Shown piece after piece: positions 1-34,601 of a DNA stretch of 64,000 nt. Below the pieces are notes generated by a model that was not told the origin of the DNA, made no database searches, and saw only the letters and a list, made by a program, of their open reading frames with translations. The stretch is taken from positions 5,847-69,846 of the forward strand of contig JAGLYK010000011.1 of NCBI GenBank assembly GCA_023132255.1, written 5' to 3'. Numbering within the stretch: position 1 is the first letter of the stretch; each line of letters opens with the position of its first letter. Origin of the DNA: Candidatus Pacearchaeota archaeon (GTDB lineage Archaea; Nanobdellota; Nanobdellia; Pacearchaeales; GW2011-AR1). The position numbers were made by a program, and so were the translations under genes.

Positions 1-3000
1 GTTGCACTGTATGAGAAGATAAAACTTGCTGAGGAAGTTGAGCAGAAGGCAAGTGCTGCTGTTTTTTGCGAGGAGTTTAAGCAGAGATATCCTGAGTCAG
101 GTTATTTGAGCAAGGTGGAAGATATTTGTGATGAGTATGCTCTTGCAAATTCAGAAAGTGCAAGTTGGAATATTTTAGTGAATGGTGTTGCGAATAGTAT
201 CAGATTTGAGGGAGTTTATGAGCCAAGTGAAAAAGAGTATAGTGCAGAAGTTAGTATTGGTGATAAAGATTATGTTTTGACAAAGAATGAGATTGTTGAG
301 CCAGAAGATGAATCCTCAAAGGATGACTCTGGTGAGCCTGAGTTTTTTGTTCAGTTGATTTCTCTTAACGATGATTATGCAAAGGTGCAAGTGAATTATA
401 AAGACGAGGATGGGAAGCCGCGTTATAAGATATTTAAGTTGAAGGAAGATGTTGTGGAGAGTTTTTGGGAGGATAATAAGATTGTTTTGACAGAGATTAA
501 TTTGAAAAAGCAGGCGAAGGTTAGTGTGATTCCGAGTATTGATAATGTCGGGACAGAGGCGGATTTTACATTTAAGATTGGAATTGAGAAAAGGGCCATA
601 CAGCTTTCTCCTGAAAAGACTATGGAGAAGATTAAGAATTTGAATGAGACAATTGAGAAATGGGAGAAGATTTCTGATAATTTAGGGAATGTTGTGAAGG
701 GCATGAAGGTTGCTTGTCTTGGAACAAGTGCCTATTTAACTGTCAAGAATTTGTTTTCAGGATTTAGTGGGAAAGCAGCTGCAAGGCATGAGGTTACTGG
801 ATGGTATAGGGATAAATGTAAAGCAGAGGGAGTAGAAGGGACAAAGGAGATGCAAAAATGTTTGCTGGGTTATAATGATAAAATAAATGAGGGTGTTGAA
901 GCACTTGCTGAAGTGAATACTAATCGTGAAAGATTAAATGATAAAATTTCTTATAAAGATGGGAAGTTAGAAAATGCAGATGAGTTTTTGAAGAATTTGC
1001 CAAAGAGTTTTCAAAGTGAAGATGGAAAAATTGATATTAGCAAGGAGGAGATGGAGGCGATAAAGAAAAATCTTGGGACACAGGATTATAACCAATATGT
1101 AAAAGATCTTAATTATTATTGGGATATGAAAAGTAAAAAAGGAATTTTTGATGATAAGGCGGATAAAAACATAGAAGAAATTTGGAAGAGGTTGGATAAA
1201 GATTATCAGTTAAATAATGTTGGTAAAAGTCTTTATAGTGAACTTGAATGGGATGCTCAAGATGTTACTGTTGGTGCGAGTAAAGATGTGAAAGAGTTTG
1301 GAGTTTCTAATTTTAGAACTGTTGCAGAAGCTAAGAATAAATTTAGTGGGATAGATGGTAAATATGATAAGTATTATGTTCGTCCTTATGTTGATGATAT
1401 TGGAGGAAAGAGTTATTTATTAATAGTTGATAAAAATGGAATTGTTCAAAAAACTTATGAGTATGGTAATAAAGATTCTGATGGAAAAATTTCTTTAACT
1501 GATACAGGTCAAACAAATAAATTTAAAGTTAGGTTTAAACTTTTTGACAAAACTTCATACAATAATAAATATGAAGAACCAAAAGTGATTTATTATGAAA
1601 TTGGGGCAGATAAGGGCAGACCTGCGATTGTGCCTGTTGATGTGGACAAGGGTTTTTATGCTGCGACAACTTCTGGTTCAAGTGGTATGAGTTCTTATGA
1701 TGCTTCTGGGATGCCGTCGTATTTTTATCTTTGCAATGTTATGGAAAATGGAAAGCAGGAGTTTAATCAGGGAAGGGATGATGAGTGTGTTGGTGTGAGG
1801 GTTGGTTCTAACAAGGCAGATGGTGCTTTGACAGGACTTAGTGAGGAAAAAACAAATGAATGGGCAAGAAAATCAATTAGTGCTTTAAGAGATGCATCAA
1901 GAGAATATGGAGCAGGAGTTAGGAAAGTTACTATTAGGGGTAAGAAAATCCTTGTTGGGAATCCTGCGATGAGTCTTCCCGGGACCCAGTGTGAGGATTT
2001 TATGTCTCCTGAAGATTGCGCTTTGATGTTTAATGTCTGCGACCCTGTTGTGTGTCCTGAAAGCAGATGTGATTTTGGAGGCAGGTATAGAGTCAGCAAT
2101 GTTGTTCAGTCAGGAATAATTGGAGGTGTGTTGCTGTGTTTGCCGAACTTTGGAAGCCCTGCTGAAGGAGGTGTTGTAATCCCGGTTTGCCTTACTGGTA
2201 TTCACGCAGGAATTGATAGTTTGGTTTCTATTTATAAAAATTACGGGGATTGTTTGCAGCACAGCCTGGATACAGGAGAGACAGTTGCGATTTGCGACGA
2301 GATTCATAGTATTTACTTGTGCGAGTTTTTCTGGAAGCAGGCAATTCCGTTTATGGACCTTATTATCCCAAAAACAATTGAATTTATTTTAACAAGAGGC
2401 GGGGGAGAGTATCTGAATGTTCAGGCAGCCTGGGCAAATGCAGGGAAGTCTGTTGATTATATGACTAATTATTATGGGGCTAATGCTTATGCAGCGTTTA
2501 AGGTGCGTTCAACAGACGAGGTTGGAACTGCTTTTTGCAAGAATTTTATTTCAGCAAGGTATCCTGCAAGCGGGGATTTTTTTGATGCATTGATTGAGCC
2601 TGACTCGCCTTCGCAGTATCATGGGTGGTTCCATGAGACAACTTTCACAACAGCGACGGTTCCGCCGACATCGCAGTACAAAGTGTTCTACCACATTTAT
2701 GCAGGAAAGGACGCTGGTGTTTATTACAGTGTTTATTTAAAGAGTCCAGAGGGGAGTTCTTTTTACACAGATGCCTCGCAAGTAAGTGTTGCTTCTGGTT
2801 ATATTGAGAAAGGGGGATATGCATCTGAGACCAAGGATTTCATAGATGTTTCAGGTTATCAGGAAATGTGCATTAATGTTCAGGGGCAGGAACAGTGCGG
2901 GTTTAAGGATGTGTCAACTTCTTTTGCTTTGGATTATCTGAATAAGAAGTATGTGAAAGACCAGGCAAAGAGGACAGATATTAAGTCAGAGAAAGAGTGC

Positions 3001-4335
3001 ATTTCCGGAAGTGCGAGTGTGTATAGCATGCTGACGCCGAATGTTCAGGCAGGCACTGAGAGAGTGATTGAGCCGAAGATTTATGACCAGGGAATTGTTC
3101 GGGTTTGTGCGACAAGCAATCCTGGTGAAGCCACAGACAAGACAAGGTGGGCTGAGGTAGGGACTTGCGGGGGAAATATAAAATGCTGGCTTGACACAGA
3201 TAGTGTGAAAGATGCTGTTGTGTTTGATGAAAGTCTGAAAGGTTTGGAAAAAGTAACAGAAGATGCTCTTGAGAAATTAAGGAGAGAAGGAGATTATCTG
3301 AGTGCTGCTGAATTTGATAATTTAATTGATGATATTAAAAAGGCTGATAATGAAAAGAAGATAATTTTGATTAATGACGCTCTTAATGAAAAGAGTGAGA
3401 AGAAAGTTTTCTTTGATAGAGAAAAAGTACAGTTGTTGTTTTTGAAAGCAAAGGCATATGCTGGTTTGGTTTTGGCAGAGATTATGGGGGAGAAAGGTGT
3501 GGAGAGTGAGAAGCCTAAGATACAGGGGGATGTGGATGAAAAGGAAGATGAGGAGGAAGGGGATGATGTGAAAAAAGAAAGTGAAAAGACCTGTGGAGAT
3601 TGTAAGCCAGAATTTGGTTTTTTTTGTGATGAAGAAGAATGTGAAGAATTTGGAGTGGAGATAGGTAAGGAATGTCATAAGGAGTTAATAATAAAATGTG
3701 TTGAGAAAGAAGTGGAAGAAGATGAAGAAAAAACTTTTAGTGAACTTGAGAAAGTTGAAATAGAAGATAGAGAAGATAAAACTTATGATTTTAAAAATGA
3801 TAGAACTAAAGTAAATATAATTAAAATTATGAATAAAGCAAAAACTGAAAGTTTTGGAGATAGGCTTTGTAATTGTGAGAATGATTCTGGTTCTTATGCT
3901 GATTTGGTTATTAAGGCTTCTCAGAAATACAATATTCCCGATCCTCTTTTATTGCTTTCAGTGATGATGCAGGAATCAAGTTGTGAAGCAGAGGCAGAAC
4001 TTGGGAGTTCTATTGGGTTAATGGGGATTTCTTCTTGGGAAATGTGTGAGGATGAATTAAGTTTGGGTAGTAATGAGGATGTTAAGGGAAAAAGAAATGT
4101 TGCTAATAATATAAATTGCGGGGCGTTTGTTTTAAAACAGAAACATAAAGAGAAAGGAACTTTTTATTCTGCAGGCAGTGACCAGAAATATAATAGTTGT
4201 TCTAGAAATTATAATACAATTTATTATAATTGGGAAGCTGCATTAAGAGGTTATAATGGTTGGGGATGTGGAAATGATGATTATGTTGAAGAGGTTATGC
4301 AAAGATTTGAGGAGTTGAGTAAAAGTTTAGATTAA
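1..4335 (+). CDS. Large protein of at least 1409 aa, truncated at the 5' window edge, with a Cys-rich central region and a C-terminal lytic transglycosylase (SLT/GH23-like) domain.
   Basis: The frame is open from base 1, so the ORF continues upstream. The C-terminus carries ES...GLMGI...YN-G-G motifs (MQESSCEAEAELGSSIGLMGISSW, RGYNGWG) typical of family-1 lytic transglycosylases. Many CxxC-like Cys clusters lie in the middle (aa about 620-760). Confidence 0.55.
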   Translation, partial: VALYEKIKLAEEVEQKASAAVFCEEFKQRYPESGYLSKVEDICDEYALANSESASWNILVNGVANSIRFEGVYEPSEKEYSAEVSIGDKDYVLTKNEIVEPEDESSKDDSGEPEFFVQLISLNDDYAKVQVNYKDEDGKPRYKIFKLKEDVVESFWEDNKIVLTEINLKKQAKVSVIPSIDNVGTEADFTFKIGIEKRAIQLSPEKTMEKIKNLNETIEKWEKISDNLGNVVKGMKVACLGTSAYLTVKNLFSGFSGKAAARHEVTGWYRDKCKAEGVEGTKEMQKCLLGYNDKINEGVEALAEVNTNRERLNDKISYKDGKLENADEFLKNLPKSFQSEDGKIDISKEEMEAIKKNLGTQDYNQYVKDLNYYWDMKSKKGIFDDKADKNIEEIWKRLDKDYQLNNVGKSLYSELEWDAQDVTVGASKDVKEFGVSNFRTVAEAKNKFSGIDGKYDKYYVRPYVDDIGGKSYLLIVDKNGIVQKTYEYGNKDSDGKISLTDTGQTNKFKVRFKLFDKTSYNNKYEEPKVIYYEIGADKGRPAIVPVDVDKGFYAATTSGSSGMSSYDASGMPSYFYLCNVMENGKQEFNQGRDDECVGVRVGSNKADGALTGLSEEKTNEWARKSISALRDASREYGAGVRKVTIRGKKILVGNPAMSLPGTQCEDFMSPEDCALMFNVCDPVVCPESRCDFGGRYRVSNVVQSGIIGGVLLCLPNFGSPAEGGVVIPVCLTGIHAGIDSLVSIYKNYGDCLQHSLDTGETVAICDEIHSIYLCEFFWKQAIPFMDLIIPKTIEFILTRGGGEYLNVQAAWANAGKSVDYMTNYYGANAYAAFKVRSTDEVGTAFCKNFISARYPASGDFFDALIEPDSPSQYHGWFHETTFTTATVPPTSQYKVFYHIYAGKDAGVYYSVYLKSPEGSSFYTDASQVSVASGYIEKGGYASETKDFIDVSGYQEMCINVQGQEQCGFKDVSTSFALDYLNKKYVKDQAKRTDIKSEKECISGSASVYSMLTPNVQAGTERVIEPKIYDQGIVRVCATSNPGEATDKTRWAEVGTCGGNIKCWLDTDSVKDAVVFDESLKGLEKVTEDALEKLRREGDYLSAAEFDNLIDDIKKADNEKKIILINDALNEKSEKKVFFDREKVQLLFLKAKAYAGLVLAEIMGEKGVESEKPKIQGDVDEKEDEEEGDDVKKESEKTCGDCKPEFGFFCDEEECEEFGVEIGKECHKELIIKCVEKEVEEDEEKTFSELEKVEIEDREDKTYDFKNDRTKVNIIKIMNKAKTESFGDRLCNCENDSGSYADLVIKASQKYNIPDPLLLLSVMMQESSCEAEAELGSSIGLMGISSWEMCEDELSLGSNEDVKGKRNVANNINCGAFVLKQKHKEKGTFYSAGSDQKYNSCSRNYNTIYYNWEAALRGYNGWGCGNDDYVEEVMQRFEELSKSLD

Positions 4336-4359
4336 TCTAATTCTAAAGATTTAGAAAAA

Positions 4360-4481
4360 TGCGGAGAACAGGATTCGAACCCATGTAGGCACTAAGCCAC
4401 CAGGTCCTAAGCTTGGCCTTCTATTAAAAATTAAATTTATCTAATAAAATCTGGCCCGTTTGACCACTCCGGCATCTCCGC
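4360..4481 (-). tRNA. tRNA-Leu (anticodon UAG), class II with a long variable arm and a 38-nt intron between positions 30 and 31.
   Basis: Reverse complement gives acceptor GCGGAGA/TCTCCGC and D-arm CCG-GAGTGGTCAAA-CGG. After removing ATTTTATTAGATAAATTTAATTTTTAATAGAAGGCCAA the anticodon stem is CCAGG/CCTGG with loop CUUAGGA. Variable arm is TGGCTTAGTGCCTAC and the T-loop is TTCGAAT. Exons are at 4451-4481 and 4360-4412. Confidence 0.6.
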
Positions 4482-5137
4482 ATGAGAATTTTAAGATTTT
4501 CAGCTTTAAAAGATATTCCATAGTATTCTTTATTATATTTTTTATATATCCATGTATCTTTTAAAACATTTATTCCAATTTCCCTGAATAATTTAATTAA
4601 GTCTTTCCATAATTGTTTACTTGCTGTTGAAAGCCCGACTTGTCTTCTTCTCCTTCCTCCGTCGGTTATCATTATCCCTATAAGAAAGGCAGATTTGATT
4701 GATTTATTTGAATTGAAAATATGCTTTGATATTTTAACTAGGTGGCTTTTTTTACCAATAGGAATTTCATAAACATGAGCTAATAAATTGTGAATTGCTT
4801 TGCTATCCATACACATAGAATAAGATTGGGCTTTTCTTTCTCTTTCTTTAACTTTATGAATATTAAATTCTCTTTTGAATAAATCAGAACAAATCTTTTT
4901 TATATCGTTCATAATCAGTTCATTTGACATTTCTATTTTAACTTGAAATTTACTTTTTTTAAGATGGCCATCTCCAATAATCGCCGCGATAAAAAAAGCC
5001 ATTTCTTCATTGAGATGTAATGGAATCTTAGTTATTTTTGATGGTCCGAATTTAGCTTTAACAAAAATTTCTTTTTTATTTTTATTAATTATTTTTAGTT
5101 TTTTTTGTGATTCTAAAATTTTCTGTTGTAAGTTCAT
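4424..5137 (-). CDS. Free-standing double-motif LAGLIDADG homing endonuclease.
   Basis: Two LAGLIDADG motifs about 100 aa apart: FFIAAIIGDGHL and AFLIGIMITDGG. The last 19 codons and the stop overlap tRNA-Leu exon 1 and its intron. Confidence 0.7.
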   Translation of the reverse strand: MNLQQKILESQKKLKIINKNKKEIFVKAKFGPSKITKIPLHLNEEMAFFIAAIIGDGHLKKSKFQVKIEMSNELIMNDIKKICSDLFKREFNIHKVKERERKAQSYSMCMDSKAIHNLLAHVYEIPIGKKSHLVKISKHIFNSNKSIKSAFLIGIMITDGGRRRRQVGLSTASKQLWKDLIKLFREIGINVLKDTWIYKKYNKEYYGISFKAENLKILMRRCRSGQTGQILLDKFNF

Positions 5138-5227
5138 GATTAGTTTAATTACTTCTTGTTAATAAATGTTTCGTTGCCTGCCCCATTCTACTATGTAATG
5201 GGATTAATAATATTAAAATCTTTAGAA

Positions 5228-6151
5228 TTATTTCTTTTTTGCTTCTGCTTCTTTTTGCTTGATTTTTTCTTCCAAGTCAAGTTTTTCAATTAGTTCTTTG
5301 TAGCGATTTCTGATTGTAACTTCTGTTATTCCTGCAATGTCTGCGACTTCTCTCTGGGTTTTTTTCTCGTCGTTTATTAATGCTGCGACATAAAGTGCTG
5401 CTGCGGCAATTCCTGCAGGACCTCTTCCTGAAGTTAGTTCAACTTCTTCTGCTTTCTTTAGAACTTTCAGGGCATCGTTTTGAGTTTTTGGAGAAAGTTT
5501 CAAGACAGATGAGAATCTTGAAATGTAATCTTTTGGAGAGCTTTGCTTTACCCTGATTCCAAGTTTTCTGATGATAAATCTGTAAGTTCTTCCTATTTCT
5601 TTTCTTTCAACATCTGATGCAGTTGTCATTTCGTCGAGGGTTCTTGGGATGTTGTATGAACGGCATGCAGCATAAAGACAGGCAGCGATTACAGATTCCA
5701 TGCTTCTTCCTCTGACAAGCCCTCTTTGGAGAACGTAGTTGTAAATTCTTGAGGCTTCGTCTCGGACAACGTTTGGCAGATTTAGATAAGATGCGGTGAC
5801 TCTTAATTCTGCCATAGCTAATCTTAAATTTCTTTCAATGCTTGTAGAAACTCTTTCCTGCCATTTTTTTAATCTCAGGAATTTTCTTGTTTGTTTTGGC
5901 TCTAATCTGTAGATGTCTGAAATTTCTCCGACATTTGTTGTCAAACCTTTGTCAAACTTTTGCATGCTCATTGGAGCACCGCTTCTGCCTTTTTTTTCAC
6001 CCTTGTCAAATTTTCCCTGAAGGTCTATTCCGGTATCCACCATTTTTTCCTCGACAACAAGACCACAATCATTACAGATTACTTCTCCAAGGTGCGCGTC
6101 GTGAGTGAGATGTATGCTTCCGCATTCAGGACATTTTCTTATTCCAGCCAT
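5228..6151 (-). CDS. tfb: Transcription initiation factor TFB (TFIIB homolog).
   Basis: N-terminal Zn ribbon CPECGS...CNDCG followed by two cyclin-like repeats. Length of 307 aa is typical of TFB. Confidence 0.9.
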   Translation of the reverse strand: MAGIRKCPECGSIHLTHDAHLGEVICNDCGLVVEEKMVDTGIDLQGKFDKGEKKGRSGAPMSMQKFDKGLTTNVGEISDIYRLEPKQTRKFLRLKKWQERVSTSIERNLRLAMAELRVTASYLNLPNVVRDEASRIYNYVLQRGLVRGRSMESVIAACLYAACRSYNIPRTLDEMTTASDVERKEIGRTYRFIIRKLGIRVKQSSPKDYISRFSSVLKLSPKTQNDALKVLKKAEEVELTSGRGPAGIAAAALYVAALINDEKKTQREVADIAGITEVTIRNRYKELIEKLDLEEKIKQKEAEAKKK

Positions 6152-6611: not shown

Positions 6612-6685
6612 ATTTAGAAAGAATAAAATTGATTTAAATAAGTTTCGTTGCAAAAGTTTAAAAACAAAATTATGTAGATTTAGTT

Positions 6686-6934
6686 ATGGTTAATGGAATT
6701 GAAAGACCACTTGATTTGTTGAACAACTCAAAGGGAAAAGAAGTTTTGGTGCATTTGAAGGGCGACAAGCAGTTTGTAGGAACTTTGCTGGCTTTTGACA
6801 TACACATAAACCTTGTGCTGGACAACATAAAAGAAATGCAGAACAACGAGATAAAAAGAAACCTTGGATTGACTTTTCTACGAGGCGATACAATTATCTT
6901 TATTTCTCCAGCGTCGACTGCGTTGAAAAAATAG
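6686..6934 (+). CDS. Sm-like (LSm/SmAP) RNA-binding protein.
   Basis: Sm1/Sm2 pattern: PLDLL...VLVHLKGDKQFVGTLLAFDIHINLVLDN...RGDTIIFI. Confidence 0.8.
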   Translation: MVNGIERPLDLLNNSKGKEVLVHLKGDKQFVGTLLAFDIHINLVLDNIKEMQNNEIKRNLGLTFLRGDTIIFISPASTALKK

Positions 6935-20643: not shown

Positions 20644-20780
20644 GGTCCTGTAGCTCAGTTTGGATAGAGCGACTGCCTTCTAATTAGTAAAGAAGAATCT
20701 GGAAACTAAAGTTTCCATTAGCCTCTTCATAAAATAAAGAGGGAAGCAGTAGGTCGCAGGTTCAAATCCTGTCAGGGCCA
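20644..20780 (+). tRNA. tRNA-Arg (anticodon UCU) with a 62-nt intron at the canonical 37/38 position.
   Basis: Acceptor GGTCCTG/CAGGGCC, D-arm GCTC-AGTTTGGATA-GAGC, anticodon stem ACTGC/GCAGT, loop CUUCUAA, T-arm GCAGG-TTCAAAT-CCTGT. Intron 20683-20744 contains hairpin GGAAACTaaAGTTTCC. Confidence 0.7.
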
Positions 20781-20802
20781 TTTTGTTTAGAAGTTGATTT
20801 TT

Positions 20803-20918
20803 ACCTGCTCGCAGGTTCTGCTCCCGACTCCGTACAGGTATTGATATTCAATTTTGTCCCTACCATCCCATGGGATACTGCCTCACTTCGTTCCCAGCAC
20901 AAGAACCTGCAAGCAGGT
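20803..20918 (+). ncRNA. Candidate structured small RNA (strand uncertain) closed by a terminal helix of about 17 bp.
   Basis: ACCTGCTCGCAGGTTCTGCT pairs with AGCACAAGAACCTGCAAGCAGGT. Local GC is far above the genome background, with no credible ORF. Confidence 0.4.
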
Positions 20919-21003
20919 GACTCAACTTTGTTGAGCCTCGGAAATCGCTCTCTGTCAAGGGGCATAAATATCTTTAAATAAGCCTTTTCTTTAATTTTTT
21001 CAT

Positions 21004-30946: not shown

Positions 30947-31465
30947 CTAAGGTCTCAACCACTTAACTTCATAATAAGTTATGTCTCCTTCTTCGTCGAC
31001 AATTGCCAGAAGCAGGTTTTTCTTTGTTGAGTGGGCAACCCTGTTTTTTGCAGAGAATTCATGCCAGGTTAATCTTTTTGATTCATGGTCTGCAAAGACA
31101 ATCCATTTTGCGTGCTTTTTCCCGGGTCTTTGTCCTTTGTCATAAATTCTAAAATCTGCCCCGAACTTTAATGCAGTTTTCACGATATAACCTTTTTCCC
31201 TTAAGTCCTTGAATACAGGATATTTAATCTGGATTTTTTTGTCAATTCTTTTGAATTTATTCATTAATTCTTTTTCTGATATTTTTTTGTTTCTTGAGAA
31301 TACTTCTATTTTATTTTTTTCAACTAAAAATAACGTTTCTGAAAGAGAGTACTGGATTTTCCCTGCAACTGGTTCGCCAAAGCAACTTTTTTTGTAAAGT
31401 GCATGAGCTTCAGAAGAATTGCTGGAAATTATTTCTCCTATGATGTGTGCTTGGATTTTTTTCAT
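30947..31465 (-). CDS. endA: tRNA-splicing endonuclease (EndA, homo-oligomeric type).
   Basis: ALKFGADFRIYDKG...HAKWIV catalytic region (His and Lys); N-terminal LFLVEK; 172 aa. Confidence 0.75.
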   Translation of the reverse strand: MKKIQAHIIGEIISSNSSEAHALYKKSCFGEPVAGKIQYSLSETLFLVEKNKIEVFSRNKKISEKELMNKFKRIDKKIQIKYPVFKDLREKGYIVKTALKFGADFRIYDKGQRPGKKHAKWIVFADHESKRLTWHEFSAKNRVAHSTKKNLLLAIVDEEGDITYYEVKWLRP

Positions 31466-31499: not shown

Positions 31500-34400
31500 T
31501 TGAAAGGTAATTATCTTATGAAATACAATTTCAAAAAACTTGAAAAGAAATGGCAGAGGAAGTGGGAGCAGGAGAAAGTTTTTTGGGTTGATGTTCAGCA
31601 GAAATCCAAGAAGAAAAAATTTTATTTGATGGAGATGTTTCCGTATCCATCGGCTTTGGGGCTGCATTTGGGTCATGTGTTGAATTATACTATTGGCGAT
31701 ATTCTTGCACGTTTTAAGAGGATGAAGGGGTTTAATGTTTTGTATCCAATGGGGTTTGATTCACTTGGACTGCCTGCGGAGAATGCGGCGATAAAAGCAG
31801 GAACACATCCGAAGCCTTACACAAAAAAGGCGATTAAGAATTATATCAAGCAGATGAAGGATTTGGGGCTGAGTTATGATTGGAGTAAGCTTGTGAATAC
31901 AATGGAGCCGGAATATTATAAATGGAACCAGTTGTTTTTTCTGAAGTTTTTGGAGAAAGGTTTGGCTTATCGGAAAAAGTCTGCGGTGAATTGGTGTCCT
32001 GAGTGTAATAGTGTTTTGGCGAATGAGCAGGTGCATAATGGAAAGTGCTGGAGGCATGAGGATACTGAGGTTGAGATTAAACATCTGGAGCAGTGGTTTT
32101 TGAAAATTACAGATTATGCTGATGAACTGCTGGACGGGATTAATGATTTGCAGTGGCCTCAGAAAATTAAAACAATGCAGAAAAACTGGATTGGAAAAAG
32201 TTATGGGACTGAGATTGATTTTGAGATAGAGAATACCGACGAGAAAATTTCAAATGTTGTGATTGTTCATGGGTCACCAAAGGAAGACAGACCTGATGAA
32301 TTTCCTCAAAATAAAAAACATTGGATTCTTTGGTTAAAGAAAGAATTAGAAAATCAAGGAATTAACACACATAATATTTTAATGCCTCAACCTTGGAAAC
32401 CAAATTATGAAAATTGGAAAAAAGAATTTGAAAAATTAAATGTTAATGAAAATACAATTTTAGTTGGACATAGTGCAGGAGGAGCATTTATGGTTCGATG
32501 GCTTAGTGAAAAACCGAGAAAAATAAAAAAACTAATTTTGATTGCTCCATCGAAGGAGACTACGAAAGATAGTCAGAGATTAAAAGAATTTTGTAATTTT
32601 AATATCAATGAAAAAATAAAAGATTTTGTTAAAGAAATAATAATCTTCATTTCTAATGATAAAAAAGAAACAATTAGGAGTGCTGGAATTTATAAAAAAA
32701 AATTAAATGCAGAATTAATAAATTTAGAGAATAGAGGTCATTTTACACTAAATGGAATGAAAACAAAAGAATTTCCAGAACTTCTTGAAAAAATTATTTC
32801 AAATAAAAAATTCCCTGTTTTTACAACTCGTCCTGATACAATTTATGGTGTAACTTTTATGGTTGTTTCTGCGCAGCATGAAAAATTAATGGAGTTAGTT
32901 ACTAAAGAGCAGAAAAAAGATGTTGAGAAATTTTTGCATAAAATTAAAAGTGTATCTGATAAGGATGCTGTTAACTTAGACAAGCAGGGAGTTTTCACTG
33001 GGAGTTATGCAATTAATCCGATTAATGGAGAAAAGGTTCCTGTTTATGCAGGGAATTTTGTTGTGGCTGAATATGGCTCTGGAATGGTGATGGGTGTTCC
33101 TGCACATGACCAAAGAGATTTTGATTTTGCGAAGAAATATGGTTTGGAGATTAGAGAAGTTATTAAAGGGGGGGATGTGAAAAAACAATCTTATATTGGT
33201 TCTGGGAAATTGATTAATTCTTCAAGTTTCAATGGTTTGGAAAATGAAAAAGCAAAACAAGAAATCACTAAATTTTTGGAGAAGAAAAAGTTGGGAAGGA
33301 AAACTGTTCAGTTTAAAATGCGTGATTGGTTGATTTCTCGTCAGAGATATTGGGGGACGCCGATTCCTGTTGTTTATTGTGACAAGTGCGGGATTGTTCC
33401 GGTTGATGAAAAAGATTTGCCTGTGATTTTGCCTGAGAAAGTTGTGTTTGGAAAAGGCAATCCTCTTGCGACAAATGAAAAGTTTGTGAATGTGAAATGC
33501 CCGAAATGCAATGCCAAGGCGAAAAGGGAAACAGATACAATGGATACTTTTGTTGATTCGTCGTGGTATTTTATGAGGTACCCTGATAATAAAAATTCTA
33601 AAGAACCGTTTGATAAAAAGATTGAGGCGGATTGGCTGCCTGTTGACCAATATATTGGAGGGATTGAACACGCGACAATGCATTTGCTTTATGCGAGATT
33701 CTGGACAAAGGCTCTTCGGGATTTGGGTTATGTGAATTATGACGAGCCGTTTACAAAACTGTTTAATCAGGGGATGTTGCATGGGGAGGACGGAGAGAAA
33801 ATGTCAAAGTCAAAAGGAAATGTTATTCTGCCGGAAATTGTTTCTGAAAAATATGGAATTGATACTGCGAGATTTTTCCTGATGTCCCTTGCTGCTCCGG
33901 ACAAACCTCGAGATTGGAGTGATAAAGGTGTGCAGGGAAGTTTGAAATTTATTAACAAAGTGATGAGTTATTTTGGCACCCAAGGGTGTACCCCACAAGG
34001 GGGCATCAAGATTGGAAAATCTTCTGCGAAAATTGAGAGTAAGTTAAATAAAACAATTAAAGAAGTTACAGGGCAGATTGAAAATTTTAAATATAATTTG
34101 GCTGTGATTAAGATTCGGGATTTGTTTAATTCTTTGGGTGAAGAAGAGAGCAAGGATGTTTTGGAAAAAAGTTTGAAATTGCTGCACCCTTTTTGCCCTC
34201 ATATTACAGAAGAAATTTGGGAGAAGATTGGATCATCCTCGAAAAACCGAGGACGTAAAAATTTTATTTGTTTAGAAAAATGGCCTGTTGCTGACGAGAA
34301 AAAGATTGACGAGAAGTTTGAAAAACAAGAACAAGCTGCTGAAAAGTTAAAATCAGATATAGAGCAGATTAAAAAATTAACAGGGCACCACGGGCGTACC

Positions 34401-34601
34401 CCGAAAGATTTTTTACAAAAATCTTTACAAGGGGCAAAGAAAGAGGTTAAGGTTTATGTTTATGTTCTGCCAAATGAATTGGATTTGTATTCTGAAATTA
34501 AAGGGATTGAAGTTTTTGCAGTTAATGACAAGAAAAAATATGACCCCAAAAATAAATCAAAGAAAGTTAAACCAGGAAGACCAGGGGTTTATTTAGAATG
34601 A
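31500..34601 (+). CDS. leuS: Leucyl-tRNA synthetase with an alpha/beta serine-hydrolase domain (about 187 aa, YdeN/RBBP9-like) inserted immediately before the CP1 editing domain.
   Basis: HLGH (HIGH) motif and NWIGKS, then the insert (nt 32250-32810, VIVHGS...LVGHSAGG...RGHFT), then TTRPDT editing domain with VPAHD, and KMSKS. Confidence 0.85.
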   Translation: MKGNYLMKYNFKKLEKKWQRKWEQEKVFWVDVQQKSKKKKFYLMEMFPYPSALGLHLGHVLNYTIGDILARFKRMKGFNVLYPMGFDSLGLPAENAAIKAGTHPKPYTKKAIKNYIKQMKDLGLSYDWSKLVNTMEPEYYKWNQLFFLKFLEKGLAYRKKSAVNWCPECNSVLANEQVHNGKCWRHEDTEVEIKHLEQWFLKITDYADELLDGINDLQWPQKIKTMQKNWIGKSYGTEIDFEIENTDEKISNVVIVHGSPKEDRPDEFPQNKKHWILWLKKELENQGINTHNILMPQPWKPNYENWKKEFEKLNVNENTILVGHSAGGAFMVRWLSEKPRKIKKLILIAPSKETTKDSQRLKEFCNFNINEKIKDFVKEIIIFISNDKKETIRSAGIYKKKLNAELINLENRGHFTLNGMKTKEFPELLEKIISNKKFPVFTTRPDTIYGVTFMVVSAQHEKLMELVTKEQKKDVEKFLHKIKSVSDKDAVNLDKQGVFTGSYAINPINGEKVPVYAGNFVVAEYGSGMVMGVPAHDQRDFDFAKKYGLEIREVIKGGDVKKQSYIGSGKLINSSSFNGLENEKAKQEITKFLEKKKLGRKTVQFKMRDWLISRQRYWGTPIPVVYCDKCGIVPVDEKDLPVILPEKVVFGKGNPLATNEKFVNVKCPKCNAKAKRETDTMDTFVDSSWYFMRYPDNKNSKEPFDKKIEADWLPVDQYIGGIEHATMHLLYARFWTKALRDLGYVNYDEPFTKLFNQGMLHGEDGEKMSKSKGNVILPEIVSEKYGIDTARFFLMSLAAPDKPRDWSDKGVQGSLKFINKVMSYFGTQGCTPQGGIKIGKSSAKIESKLNKTIKEVTGQIENFKYNLAVIKIRDLFNSLGEEESKDVLEKSLKLLHPFCPHITEEIWEKIGSSSKNRGRKNFICLEKWPVADEKKIDEKFEKQEQAAEKLKSDIEQIKKLTGHHGRTPKDFLQKSLQGAKKEVKVYVYVLPNELDLYSEIKGIEVFAVNDKKKYDPKNKSKKVKPGRPGVYLE

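Follow-up and report, generated by a model that had tools for sequence, protein, structure and literature searches.

A putative mobile LAGLIDADG endonuclease cassette fused to a tRNA-Leu(UAG) gene with a non-canonical intron in a Pacearchaeota archaeon

Analysis of a 64,000-nucleotide (nt) stretch from a Candidatus Pacearchaeota archaeon (GenBank assembly GCA_023132255.1, contig JAGLYK010000011.1; the whole stretch is referred to below as the window) revealed a LAGLIDADG homing-endonuclease open reading frame (ORF) that runs into an intron-containing tRNA-Leu(UAG) gene. We consider it probable that this locus is a compact mobile homing-endonuclease cassette that has integrated into, and become fused with, the tRNA gene. 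The parts of the cassette are, in order, a candidate promoter of host type, the LAGLIDADG ORF and, traversed by the end of that ORF, a tRNA 5′ half; a 38-nt intron and exon 2 of the tRNA follow. Sequence comparison shows the layout of the locus, the family, the footprints of insertion, the patchy distribution, and the linkage and covariation of the intron, and from it we infer that the endonuclease homes and where it cuts, that the promoters are used, that the tRNA-splicing endonuclease EndA removes the intron, and that the resident gene is immune. The window has a G+C content of 31%, and archaeal genes for the transcription factor TFB, ribosomal protein S8e and an Sm protein lie near the locus. 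The features on which the argument is built are the following.

4360-4481, minus strand: tRNA-Leu(UAG) gene with one intron (exon 1 4451-4481, intron 4413-4450, exon 2 4360-4412, anticodon TAG 4407-4409)
4413-4450, minus strand: 38-nt non-canonical intron at position 30/31, relaxed bulge-helix-bulge (BHB) of the HBh′ form, from the minimum-free-energy (MFE) fold, comparison and covariation
4424-5137, minus strand: LAGLIDADG homing-endonuclease ORF, 237 aa, from Pfam, homologues, and AlphaFold 2 (AF2) with Foldseek
4964-4981, minus strand: LAGLIDADG motif 1, IIGDGH, residues 53-58, D56 invariant
4655-4678, minus strand: LAGLIDADG motif 2, GIMITDGG, residues 154-161, residue 159 D or E
4505-4511, minus strand: TTTTAAA, candidate TATA box of the tRNA at −30 to −24 from tRNA nucleotide 1, formed by the conserved F-K codons of YYGxxFK
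5161-5177, minus strand: GCAACGAAACATTTATT, candidate promoter resembling a B recognition element (BRE) and TATA box, exactly 40 nt before the endonuclease ATG, from 24 loci and comparison with S8e
5178-5191, minus strand: GTAGAATGGGGCAG, decayed relic of tRNA-Leu nucleotides ~17-30 (consensus GTCAAACGGGCCAG) adjoining the cassette, from a position weight matrix (PWM)
30947-31465, minus strand: tRNA-splicing endonuclease EndA, 172 aa, single alpha-type unit (PF01974 9.3e-30, PF02778 2.6e-11, TIGR00324)

The Rfam tRNA model RF00005 spans 4360-4481 on the minus strand end to end, with a score of 37.9 bits against a cut-off of 29, and its alignment places ~41 inserted bases after the 5′ strand of the anticodon stem. 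Default ARAGORN made no call at the tRNA-Leu locus, but removal of the 38 nt at 4413-4450 leaves an 84-nt sequence that the program calls as tRNA-Leu(tag). This spliced form has the CCAGG/CCTGG stem and CUUAGGA loop predicted by the first-pass annotation, along with a long variable arm and discriminator A73. Across the junction, about 50 uninterrupted orthologues read ...CAG-GCTTAGGA-CCTG..., and since they match the exon junction, excision of 38 nt at 30/31 is the correct model. The first-pass annotation therefore located the intron properly; position 30/31 is nonetheless not a new site, being already among the recorded archaeal non-canonical intron and split positions (PMC4090602).

The 237-aa ORF product matches LAGLIDADG_3 (PF14528, 1.3e-10) and Hom_end (PF05204, 3.9e-8) above cut-off. 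Its AF2 model (predicted local distance difference test 94, predicted template-modelling score 0.91) matches by Foldseek the TliVMA intein endonuclease of Thermococcus VMA (1e-11) and, with template-modelling (TM) scores of ~0.7, the archaeal intron enzymes I-Tsp061I (1e-7) and I-DmoI (2e-7). Model, Foldseek and Pfam together support a two-domain LAGLIDADG saddle fold (alpha-beta-beta-alpha-beta-beta-alpha, twice). An alignment of 31 sequences shows no variation at D56 and either D or E at residue 159, and motifs 1 and 2 retain their acidic residues in 115 and 118 of 120 homologues, respectively. Judged by these motifs, the protein appears to be a monomeric, two-motif LAGLIDADG endonuclease that is catalytically intact.

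The ORF meets no in-frame stop before the TAA at 4424-4426, which confirms that it ends inside the intron. Its 58-nt overlap with the tRNA gene comprises 31 nt of exon 1 (~10 codons) and 27 nt of intron 4413-4450, which also encodes the last eight codons and the stop of the endonuclease. The earlier assignment of the last 19 codons to exon 1 thus holds for the overlap itself but not for its division, as only about ten of them come from the exon. The conserved protein core stops near residue 215, and the tail derives from exon 1 (...M-R-R-C-R-S-G-Q-T-G-Q) and from the intron (I-L-L-D-K-F-N-F-stop). In contrast to the I-DmoI type, the ORF is not enclosed by a functional intron, in which only its last 27 nt lie; the upstream exon 1 that would enclose it is a 14-nt relic, whose strand of the central helix, GGGC, pairs at three of four positions.

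Nine tRNA-Leu genes with an intron at 30/31 were compared, namely those of the window and of the related loci L002, L004, L005, L012, L019, L101, L110 and L112. In the window, the central helix (H) of the putative BHB pairs GGCC at 4453-4456 (exon-1 nucleotides 25-28) with GGCC at 4415-4418 (intron −6 to −3), and it is flanked by 3-nt bulges AG|A (4452, 4451 | 4450) and AA|G (4414, 4413 | 4412), with the splice site after the second base. The inner helix h′ has 10 bp (4440-4449 with 4419-4428), and the MFE fold of the locus includes H, bulge and h′. All four H pairs are present in each of the first seven intron-bearing tRNAs, with invariant bulges and an h′ of 4-13 bp in six of the seven. Among the nine genes the central helix occurs as GGCC/GGCC, GGCC/GGCU, GGAC/GUCU and GGUC/GACC, and double (compensatory) changes are found at four pairs of the combined structure. 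For the ten pairs of H and h′ in these nine sequences, 97.8% of cells are paired, as against 84.4±2.7% in shuffled controls (0/500 as high) and 40-62% with a slid partner. These patterns argue that the 30/31 intron is a genuine BHB intron, with splicing as its predicted fate. A group I intron in this tRNA-Leu gene was rejected, the intron being only 38 nt long; a search of 4200-5300 against Rfam at E≤1 gave no match besides the tRNA and no group I ribozyme core. EndA, presumed to excise the intron, is encoded in the window where the first-pass annotation had placed it and scores 101 bits against TIGR00324 (cut-off 59.6).

In a protein search, 139 relatives sharing 45-75% identity were recovered from metagenome-assembled genomes (MAGs) of Pacearchaeota, Woesearchaeota and Nanoarchaeota and from metagenomes; their length is in almost every case 226-247 aa. 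Mean column identity is 60%, with 30 invariant columns, in the 31-sequence alignment. What had been described as a free-standing copy does adjoin a tRNA intron, but it is no one-off: it belongs to a large family associated with tRNA-Leu. C-terminal endings were counted in 120 of the 139 relatives, and 79 of these, as well as 20 of 24 genome loci, read into a tRNA; the overlap is therefore neither chance nor the sequencing error that had been considered as an alternative. The endings are distributed as follows.

tRNA-derived peptide M-x-x-C-R-S-G-Q-T-G... at the C-terminus: 67/120
of those 67, continuing into the intron: 23
of those 67, stopping at or beside the anticodon (the Leu anticodon DNA triplet TAG or TAA being a stop codon): 44
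entry into the tRNA in a second frame (A-G-V-P-E-W-S-N-G): 10/120
entry into the tRNA on the opposite strand: 2/120

In L004, L019 and proteins such as P0016 the ORF crosses the whole 30/31 intron and stops at the anticodon TAG. L023 enters the tRNA in yet a third reading frame, and with three frames in use the tRNA is therefore the constant partner, while the peptide tail is dispensable. About 36 members without the tRNA peptide align gap-free through the former exon 1 and intron, and three loci (L003, L015, L022) carry tRNA 3′-end remnants after the stop. We read the members without the peptide as cassettes whose tRNA has probably decayed. The idea that their CKNK-type tails are ancestral was discarded on the strength of these remnants and of 3′ ends that align gap-free through exon 1 and intron to the exon-2 junction (for example KEGY-IS* versus KEGQ-A*). 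The intron-encoded tail IL..CKNF.EG is homologous throughout the family, including members with a decayed tRNA; the intron must therefore have belonged to the cassette for a long time.

Presence and absence of the cassette were compared at 80 related loci, with the neighbouring TFB gene as the anchor, so that the comparison with empty sites covers the TFB context. Fifty-one of these have a tRNA-Leu gene after TFB on the same strand, with neither the endonuclease gene nor the 30/31 intron; this tRNA is nearly always the UAG species and sometimes has a canonical 37/38 intron. The cassette occupies the TFB site in five loci (the window, L038, L061, L004 and L110), and L101 holds a remnant, in which only the last ~35 codons of the ORF are left and an intron of 42 nt at 30/31 separates the functional exon 1 from exon 2. 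Cassette status varies among hosts with similar TFB proteins, as the amino acid identities of their TFB to that of the window show.

L030: 96.4%, cassette absent
L095: 94.8%, cassette absent
L031: 94.5%, cassette absent
L101: 94.3%, remnant
L061: 92.8%, cassette present
L110: 92.2%, cassette present
L038: 91.7%, cassette present

Elsewhere in the family, two copies are frameshifted and pseudogenised (L025, L026), one relative (P0003, 70% identical) lies in a different gene context, and one MAG has two copies. A distribution that is patchy relative to the host, with pseudogenes and several contexts, appears to be that of a homing element, not that of a core gene. In certain cases (L013, L015, L030, L095, and the proteins P0026 and P0098), the tRNA-Leu beside TFB or the cassette is sometimes on the opposite strand, which suggests local inversions.

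Of 22 loci that have the endonuclease or a remnant of it, 7 carry the 30/31 intron, against none of the 51 that have neither (Fisher p=1e-4, with relatedness not corrected for); L110 and L112 are two further cases. Cassette-linked tRNAs without the intron mostly have anticodon stems that end in CG at 30-31, and such xxxCG stems occur in 10 of 21 cassette-linked tRNAs compared with 2 of 51 cassette-free ones (p=3e-5, ignoring relatedness). Sequence across 30/31 differs from naive alleles in 16 of the 21, as would be expected if the endonuclease were kept from cutting the gene in which it resides, although we offer this as conjecture. The earlier suggestion of a mobile-intron remnant, or of an endonuclease directed against the intron-less allele, thus gains support from presence and absence at the syntenic site, from the co-occurrence of intron and cassette, and from orphan tRNA halves that end at 30/31 (see below). 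A different intron, of ~57 nt (CGAGGAGGTTTGCGAG...CGGAGAAA), sits at the canonical 37/38 position of tRNA-Leu(UAG) in the cassette-free loci L036, L057, L068, L070, L075, L088 and L092, and also in L112, which has both this and the 30/31 intron; its conservation suggests that the intron RNA may have a function.

Footprints of insertion were sought with a PWM built from 54 tRNA-Leu genes and scored against all 14-mers of each locus. The window's GTAGAATGGGGCAG ranks in the top 0.05% of locus 14-mers; of 23 loci, 13 score within the top 1% at the equivalent 14-nt position and 20 within the top 5%. Only these 14 nt, directly 5′ of the GCAACGAAACATTTATT motif, are tRNA-derived, and, joined to the cassette at 30/31, they mark the old exon 1 of the invaded tRNA gene. 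Complete orphan 5′ halves (nucleotides 1-30) are joined to the cassette exactly at 30/31 in L007, L017 and L018; that of L018 and the functional exon 1 form a direct repeat of 30 nt, while L007 and L017 also have, after the functional tRNA, an orphan 3′ part whose acceptor strand matches the orphan 5′ half. Joining the relic consensus to exon 2 gives ...AAACrGGACAG|GCTTAGGACCTG..., which restores the anticodon arm of the most frequent allele among those without the cassette. One cassette-free allele, that of L031, reads ...GTCAAACGGGACAGGCTTAGGACCTGTTAGC....

Further partial tRNA copies were seen near related genes. Some 95-110 nt downstream of the tRNA in L002 (~6790-6930), L110 (~2395-2520) and L112 (~1975-2100) is a second copy of its last 11-25 nt, which in L110 takes in 6 nt past the tRNA end; the spacer before it is partly conserved between L002 and L112 (CGTGGTAGA..ATAATCC). 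This copy may be what is left of the 3′ end of the invaded tRNA, or else a small insertion unconnected with it. In L048 (~3199-3300), 21 nt of the tRNA-Leu 5′ end are duplicated 100 nt upstream of the complete gene and ~1.1 kb from TFB, with no endonuclease, and this appears to be another insertion footprint at tRNA-Leu.

About 20 of 24 genome loci have the GCAACGAAACATTTATT motif at −39 to −40 from the ATG, and in the window it recurs with equal spacing before the S8e gene. Upstream of S8e (~6612-6654, minus strand), GCAACGAAAC and a TATA box are spaced from the ATG just as they are before the endonuclease ORF, an arrangement that looks like the consensus strong promoter of the lineage. Because motif and spacing recur before S8e, we take the motif to be a generic promoter, and we dropped the notion of a cassette-specific intron boundary; GCAACGAAACATTTATT would be an ordinary BRE/TATA promoter for a leaderless endonuclease mRNA. 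Nearly all related loci have the TTTTAAA box within the 3′ end of the ORF at an equal distance from the tRNA, it persists in L101 despite the decay of the ORF there, and similar TTTAAA boxes lie upstream of other tRNA genes in the window. The tRNA is probably transcribed from this TATA box of its own and therefore need not depend on the endonuclease transcript. The endonuclease mRNA must reach at least 4424 and hence contains exon 1; we speculate that an RNase P cut at 4481/4482 would strip its stop codon and could thereby limit endonuclease expression.

Together, these observations suggest how the cassette might operate. The endonuclease would cut a cassette-free, intron-free tRNA-Leu(UAG) gene in the anticodon stem near 30/31, and repair would copy the cassette from the donor, with homology to the old exon 1 on the left and to exon 2 on the right. 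Along with a substitute exon 1, the incoming cassette would bring a TATA box (the F-K codons, TTTAAA), from which the tRNA could be re-expressed as a short precursor starting within the 3′ end of the ORF. EndA and an RNA ligase would then take the 38-nt intron out of this precursor. The mini-intron, or elsewhere the altered xxxCG stem, would split the recognition site and so shield the resident tRNA gene. With decay of the orphan exon 1 and eventually of the endonuclease, a non-canonical intron without an ORF would remain, as in L101.

Several observations weigh against this reading. The alpha-type class of EndA has long been believed strict in its substrates, and the sole EndA seen is a single 172-aa unit of this type, while the outer helix h of the intron has just 1 bp and the BHB is therefore of the relaxed HBh′ form. 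Cleavage of relaxed HBh′ motifs depends on EndA type, and Kaneta et al. report an association between disrupted tRNA genes and DPANN alpha4 EndA enzymes that have an additional L3 loop (PMC5829648). Roughly 44 of the 120 members adjoin a tRNA without the 30/31 intron, which is thus not required. The statistics on intron and stem linkage ignore phylogenetic non-independence, and the association could simply mirror common descent of cassette and tRNA. The 75%-identical relative P0002 has the same synteny, so that part of the distribution is vertical; a search of viral contigs found no relatives and hence no known vector. Finally, the left junction is ambiguous by 2 nt, as the cassette begins with GC, which are also tRNA nucleotides 31-32, and the proposed mechanism does not account for the exon-1 duplication.

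A broader proposal can be put forward only tentatively. It holds that a self-contained, tRNA-replacing cassette cuts tRNA-Leu genes in the anticodon stem and carries in, besides itself, a promoter and either a spare exon 1 or an entire tRNA, and that the GGCC palindrome with its purine-rich trinucleotide automatically creates a BHB for EndA. As GGCC is palindromic, a duplicated ...GGCC-AG would pair with the original and make the central helix and both bulges at once. Decay would leave an ORF-less intron or orphan halves, which might constitute a general route to non-canonical introns and split tRNAs.

Among other explanations, an unlikely one is that endonuclease and intron have been juxtaposed independently. 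A free-standing endonuclease would home just upstream of tRNA-Leu by intronless homing, in the manner of phage seg/mob genes, with the 30/31 intron an unrelated host feature and the upstream tRNA-like sequence a by-product of recombination between tRNA copies. It is in keeping with this that nearly all of the ORF lies outside the intron, that many members adjoin intron-less tRNAs, and that a direct repeat of the L018 type can equally be described as an insertion at a tRNA 5′ end. Independent juxtaposition does not, however, sit well with a 30/31 intron that never occurs without cassette or remnant (0/51 versus 7/22), with orphan 5′ halves that end exactly at the intron position, or with the family-wide homology of the intron-encoded tail.

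The strong purifying selection evident from the mean column identity and invariant columns could instead indicate a domesticated protein, that is, a vertically inherited host factor such as a WhiA-like DNA-binding regulator or an RNA chaperone or maturase for tRNA-Leu, whose overlap with the tRNA would reflect compaction of a reduced DPANN genome. Weak matches of WhiA type and the TFB synteny common to the window and L110 point the same way. We nevertheless find this account improbable, given the absence of the gene from 51 syntenic loci, including the three closest relatives, the pseudogenes and remnants in L025, L026 and L101, and the several genomic contexts with two copies in one MAG. WhiA-type proteins have lost the catalytic acidic residues, which are kept here. 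A maturase role was ruled out because many members adjoin intron-less tRNAs and have no intron to mature.

It is quite improbable that the locus is the scar of a larger integrative element, in which an integrase plasmid or virus entered tRNA-Leu through an att site in the 5′ half, as in the Caldiarchaeum tRNA-Thr model, and decayed to an endonuclease gene, a direct repeat and an attP-borne intron. The topology resembles that model, with a 5′ tRNA fragment, a same-strand enzyme gene by the rebuilt tRNA and an extra intron (PMC3293823), and extra tRNA 3′-end copies do lie downstream in some related loci. In every locus, however, the ~750-bp unit between the repeats carries the LAGLIDADG gene alone, Pfam detecting no integrase and no tyrosine or serine recombinase there, and the left edge of the cassette is fixed at −40 in about 20 loci, unlike the outcome of random decay.

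Scarcely credible is a tRNA-Pro(AGG) with a 40-nt intron at 32/33, which ARAGORN returns in its intron mode (introns permitted in the anticodon loop only), or a tRNA pseudogene broken by the 3′ end of the endonuclease ORF: the Rfam score is modest owing to the intron, whereas the Pro model has no nucleotide 26 and would mean a proline tRNA with the long variable arm of type II, G31-C32 is present in the uninterrupted orthologues, BHB geometry specifies 30/31, and exon 1, intron and exon 2 co-vary across nine loci. Structure and uninterrupted orthologues mark the Pro call as an artefact, and the Leu(UAG) identity stands against the one alternative anticodon that ARAGORN produced.

The cassette shares properties with several known systems. 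Archaeal rRNA BHB introns with LAGLIDADG enzymes (I-DmoI, I-Tsp061I, I-ApeI, I-PorI) have the same monomeric double-motif fold (Foldseek E ~1e-7, TM ~0.7), a patchy distribution, and an intron in a stable-RNA gene of the BHB type that EndA splices, as we suppose here. Their host gene is an rRNA gene and their ORF is enclosed by the intron, whereas here the host is a tRNA gene, the ORF lies upstream of a duplicated exon 1, crosses that exon and ends in a 38-nt mini-intron, and a candidate tRNA promoter is embedded in the ORF. The closest likeness in working is to collaborative homing in phages (PMC3984707), where the gene of a free-standing endonuclease adjoins one that carries a short ORF-less intron at the target site of the enzyme; endonuclease and intron co-occur in both systems, and the intron plausibly shields the resident allele. 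It differs in that the intron here is a BHB intron spliced by protein and not a ribozyme, the enzyme is a LAGLIDADG protein, the ORF overlaps its target gene, and the cleavage site is a predicted one.

Integrase systems that disrupt archaeal tRNA genes (SSV- and pNOB8-type, and the Caldiarchaeum tRNA-Thr case, PMC3293823) likewise have the tRNA 5′ part present as a direct repeat flanking the insert. The Caldiarchaeum model also includes a same-strand enzyme gene by a rebuilt tRNA and a non-canonical intron gained with the element, and the ORFs of SSV-type integrases take in tRNA-derived sequence. Unlike these, the unit described here has no tyrosine recombinase and is ~750 bp in length with a homing endonuclease only; its movement would therefore proceed by double-strand-break repair and not by site-specific recombination. 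The niche of a homing endonuclease at a tRNA gene is shared with I-Ssp6803I, which resides in a cyanobacterial tRNA-fMet group I intron. It is also that of phage T4 SegB, an endonuclease in the tRNA gene cluster (PMC13096335). SegB and I-Ssp6803I belong to other enzyme families (GIY-YIG and PD-(D/E)XK, respectively) and another domain of life, with no ORF-tRNA overlap or BHB intron. The literature searched, with incomplete coverage, describes no archaeal tRNA gene to which an endonuclease cassette is fused, and the sole concrete model of non-canonical tRNA intron gain that it contained is integrase-based (PMC3293823).

Other features of the window were noted apart from the cassette. An ORF at 106-4335 on the plus strand (1409 aa within the window and 2042 aa as the full gene, locus L001) converges on tRNA-Leu, ends 24 nt from the tRNA 3′ end and has a weak C-terminal match to an SLT lytic transglycosylase. 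A tRNA-Arg(UCU) gene at 20644-20780 (plus strand) has an intron of ~64 nt at the canonical 37/38 position and scores 55.6 bits in Rfam, although default ARAGORN misses it. Between it and tRNA-Cys, a G+C-rich stretch at 20781-20965 (plus strand) forms a long imperfect hairpin (−59.1 kcal/mol, z = −3.55); nothing in Rfam matches it, and it may represent a novel small RNA. Beside EndA, at 31500-34601 (plus strand), is a 1033-aa leucyl-tRNA synthetase with a serine-hydrolase domain (PF06821, residues 271-418) inserted between its catalytic and editing parts.

The locus puts one stretch of DNA to triple use, as protein C-terminus, candidate tRNA promoter and tRNA 5′ half, and it bears on how archaeal non-canonical tRNA introns and split tRNA genes originate. 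Related loci form a series of states, from orphan halves (L007, L017, L018) through cassette with mini-intron (the window, L002, L004, L110) to an intron that has outlasted a decayed endonuclease (L101) or a decayed tRNA (L003, L013, L015, L022), and this series ties the acquisition of a BHB intron by a tRNA to a homing endonuclease. With more than 120 relatives, the finding is more general than a single odd locus and would allow experimental tests of how at least one class of non-canonical tRNA introns arose, while the enzyme family may offer new LAGLIDADG specificities against a highly conserved target.

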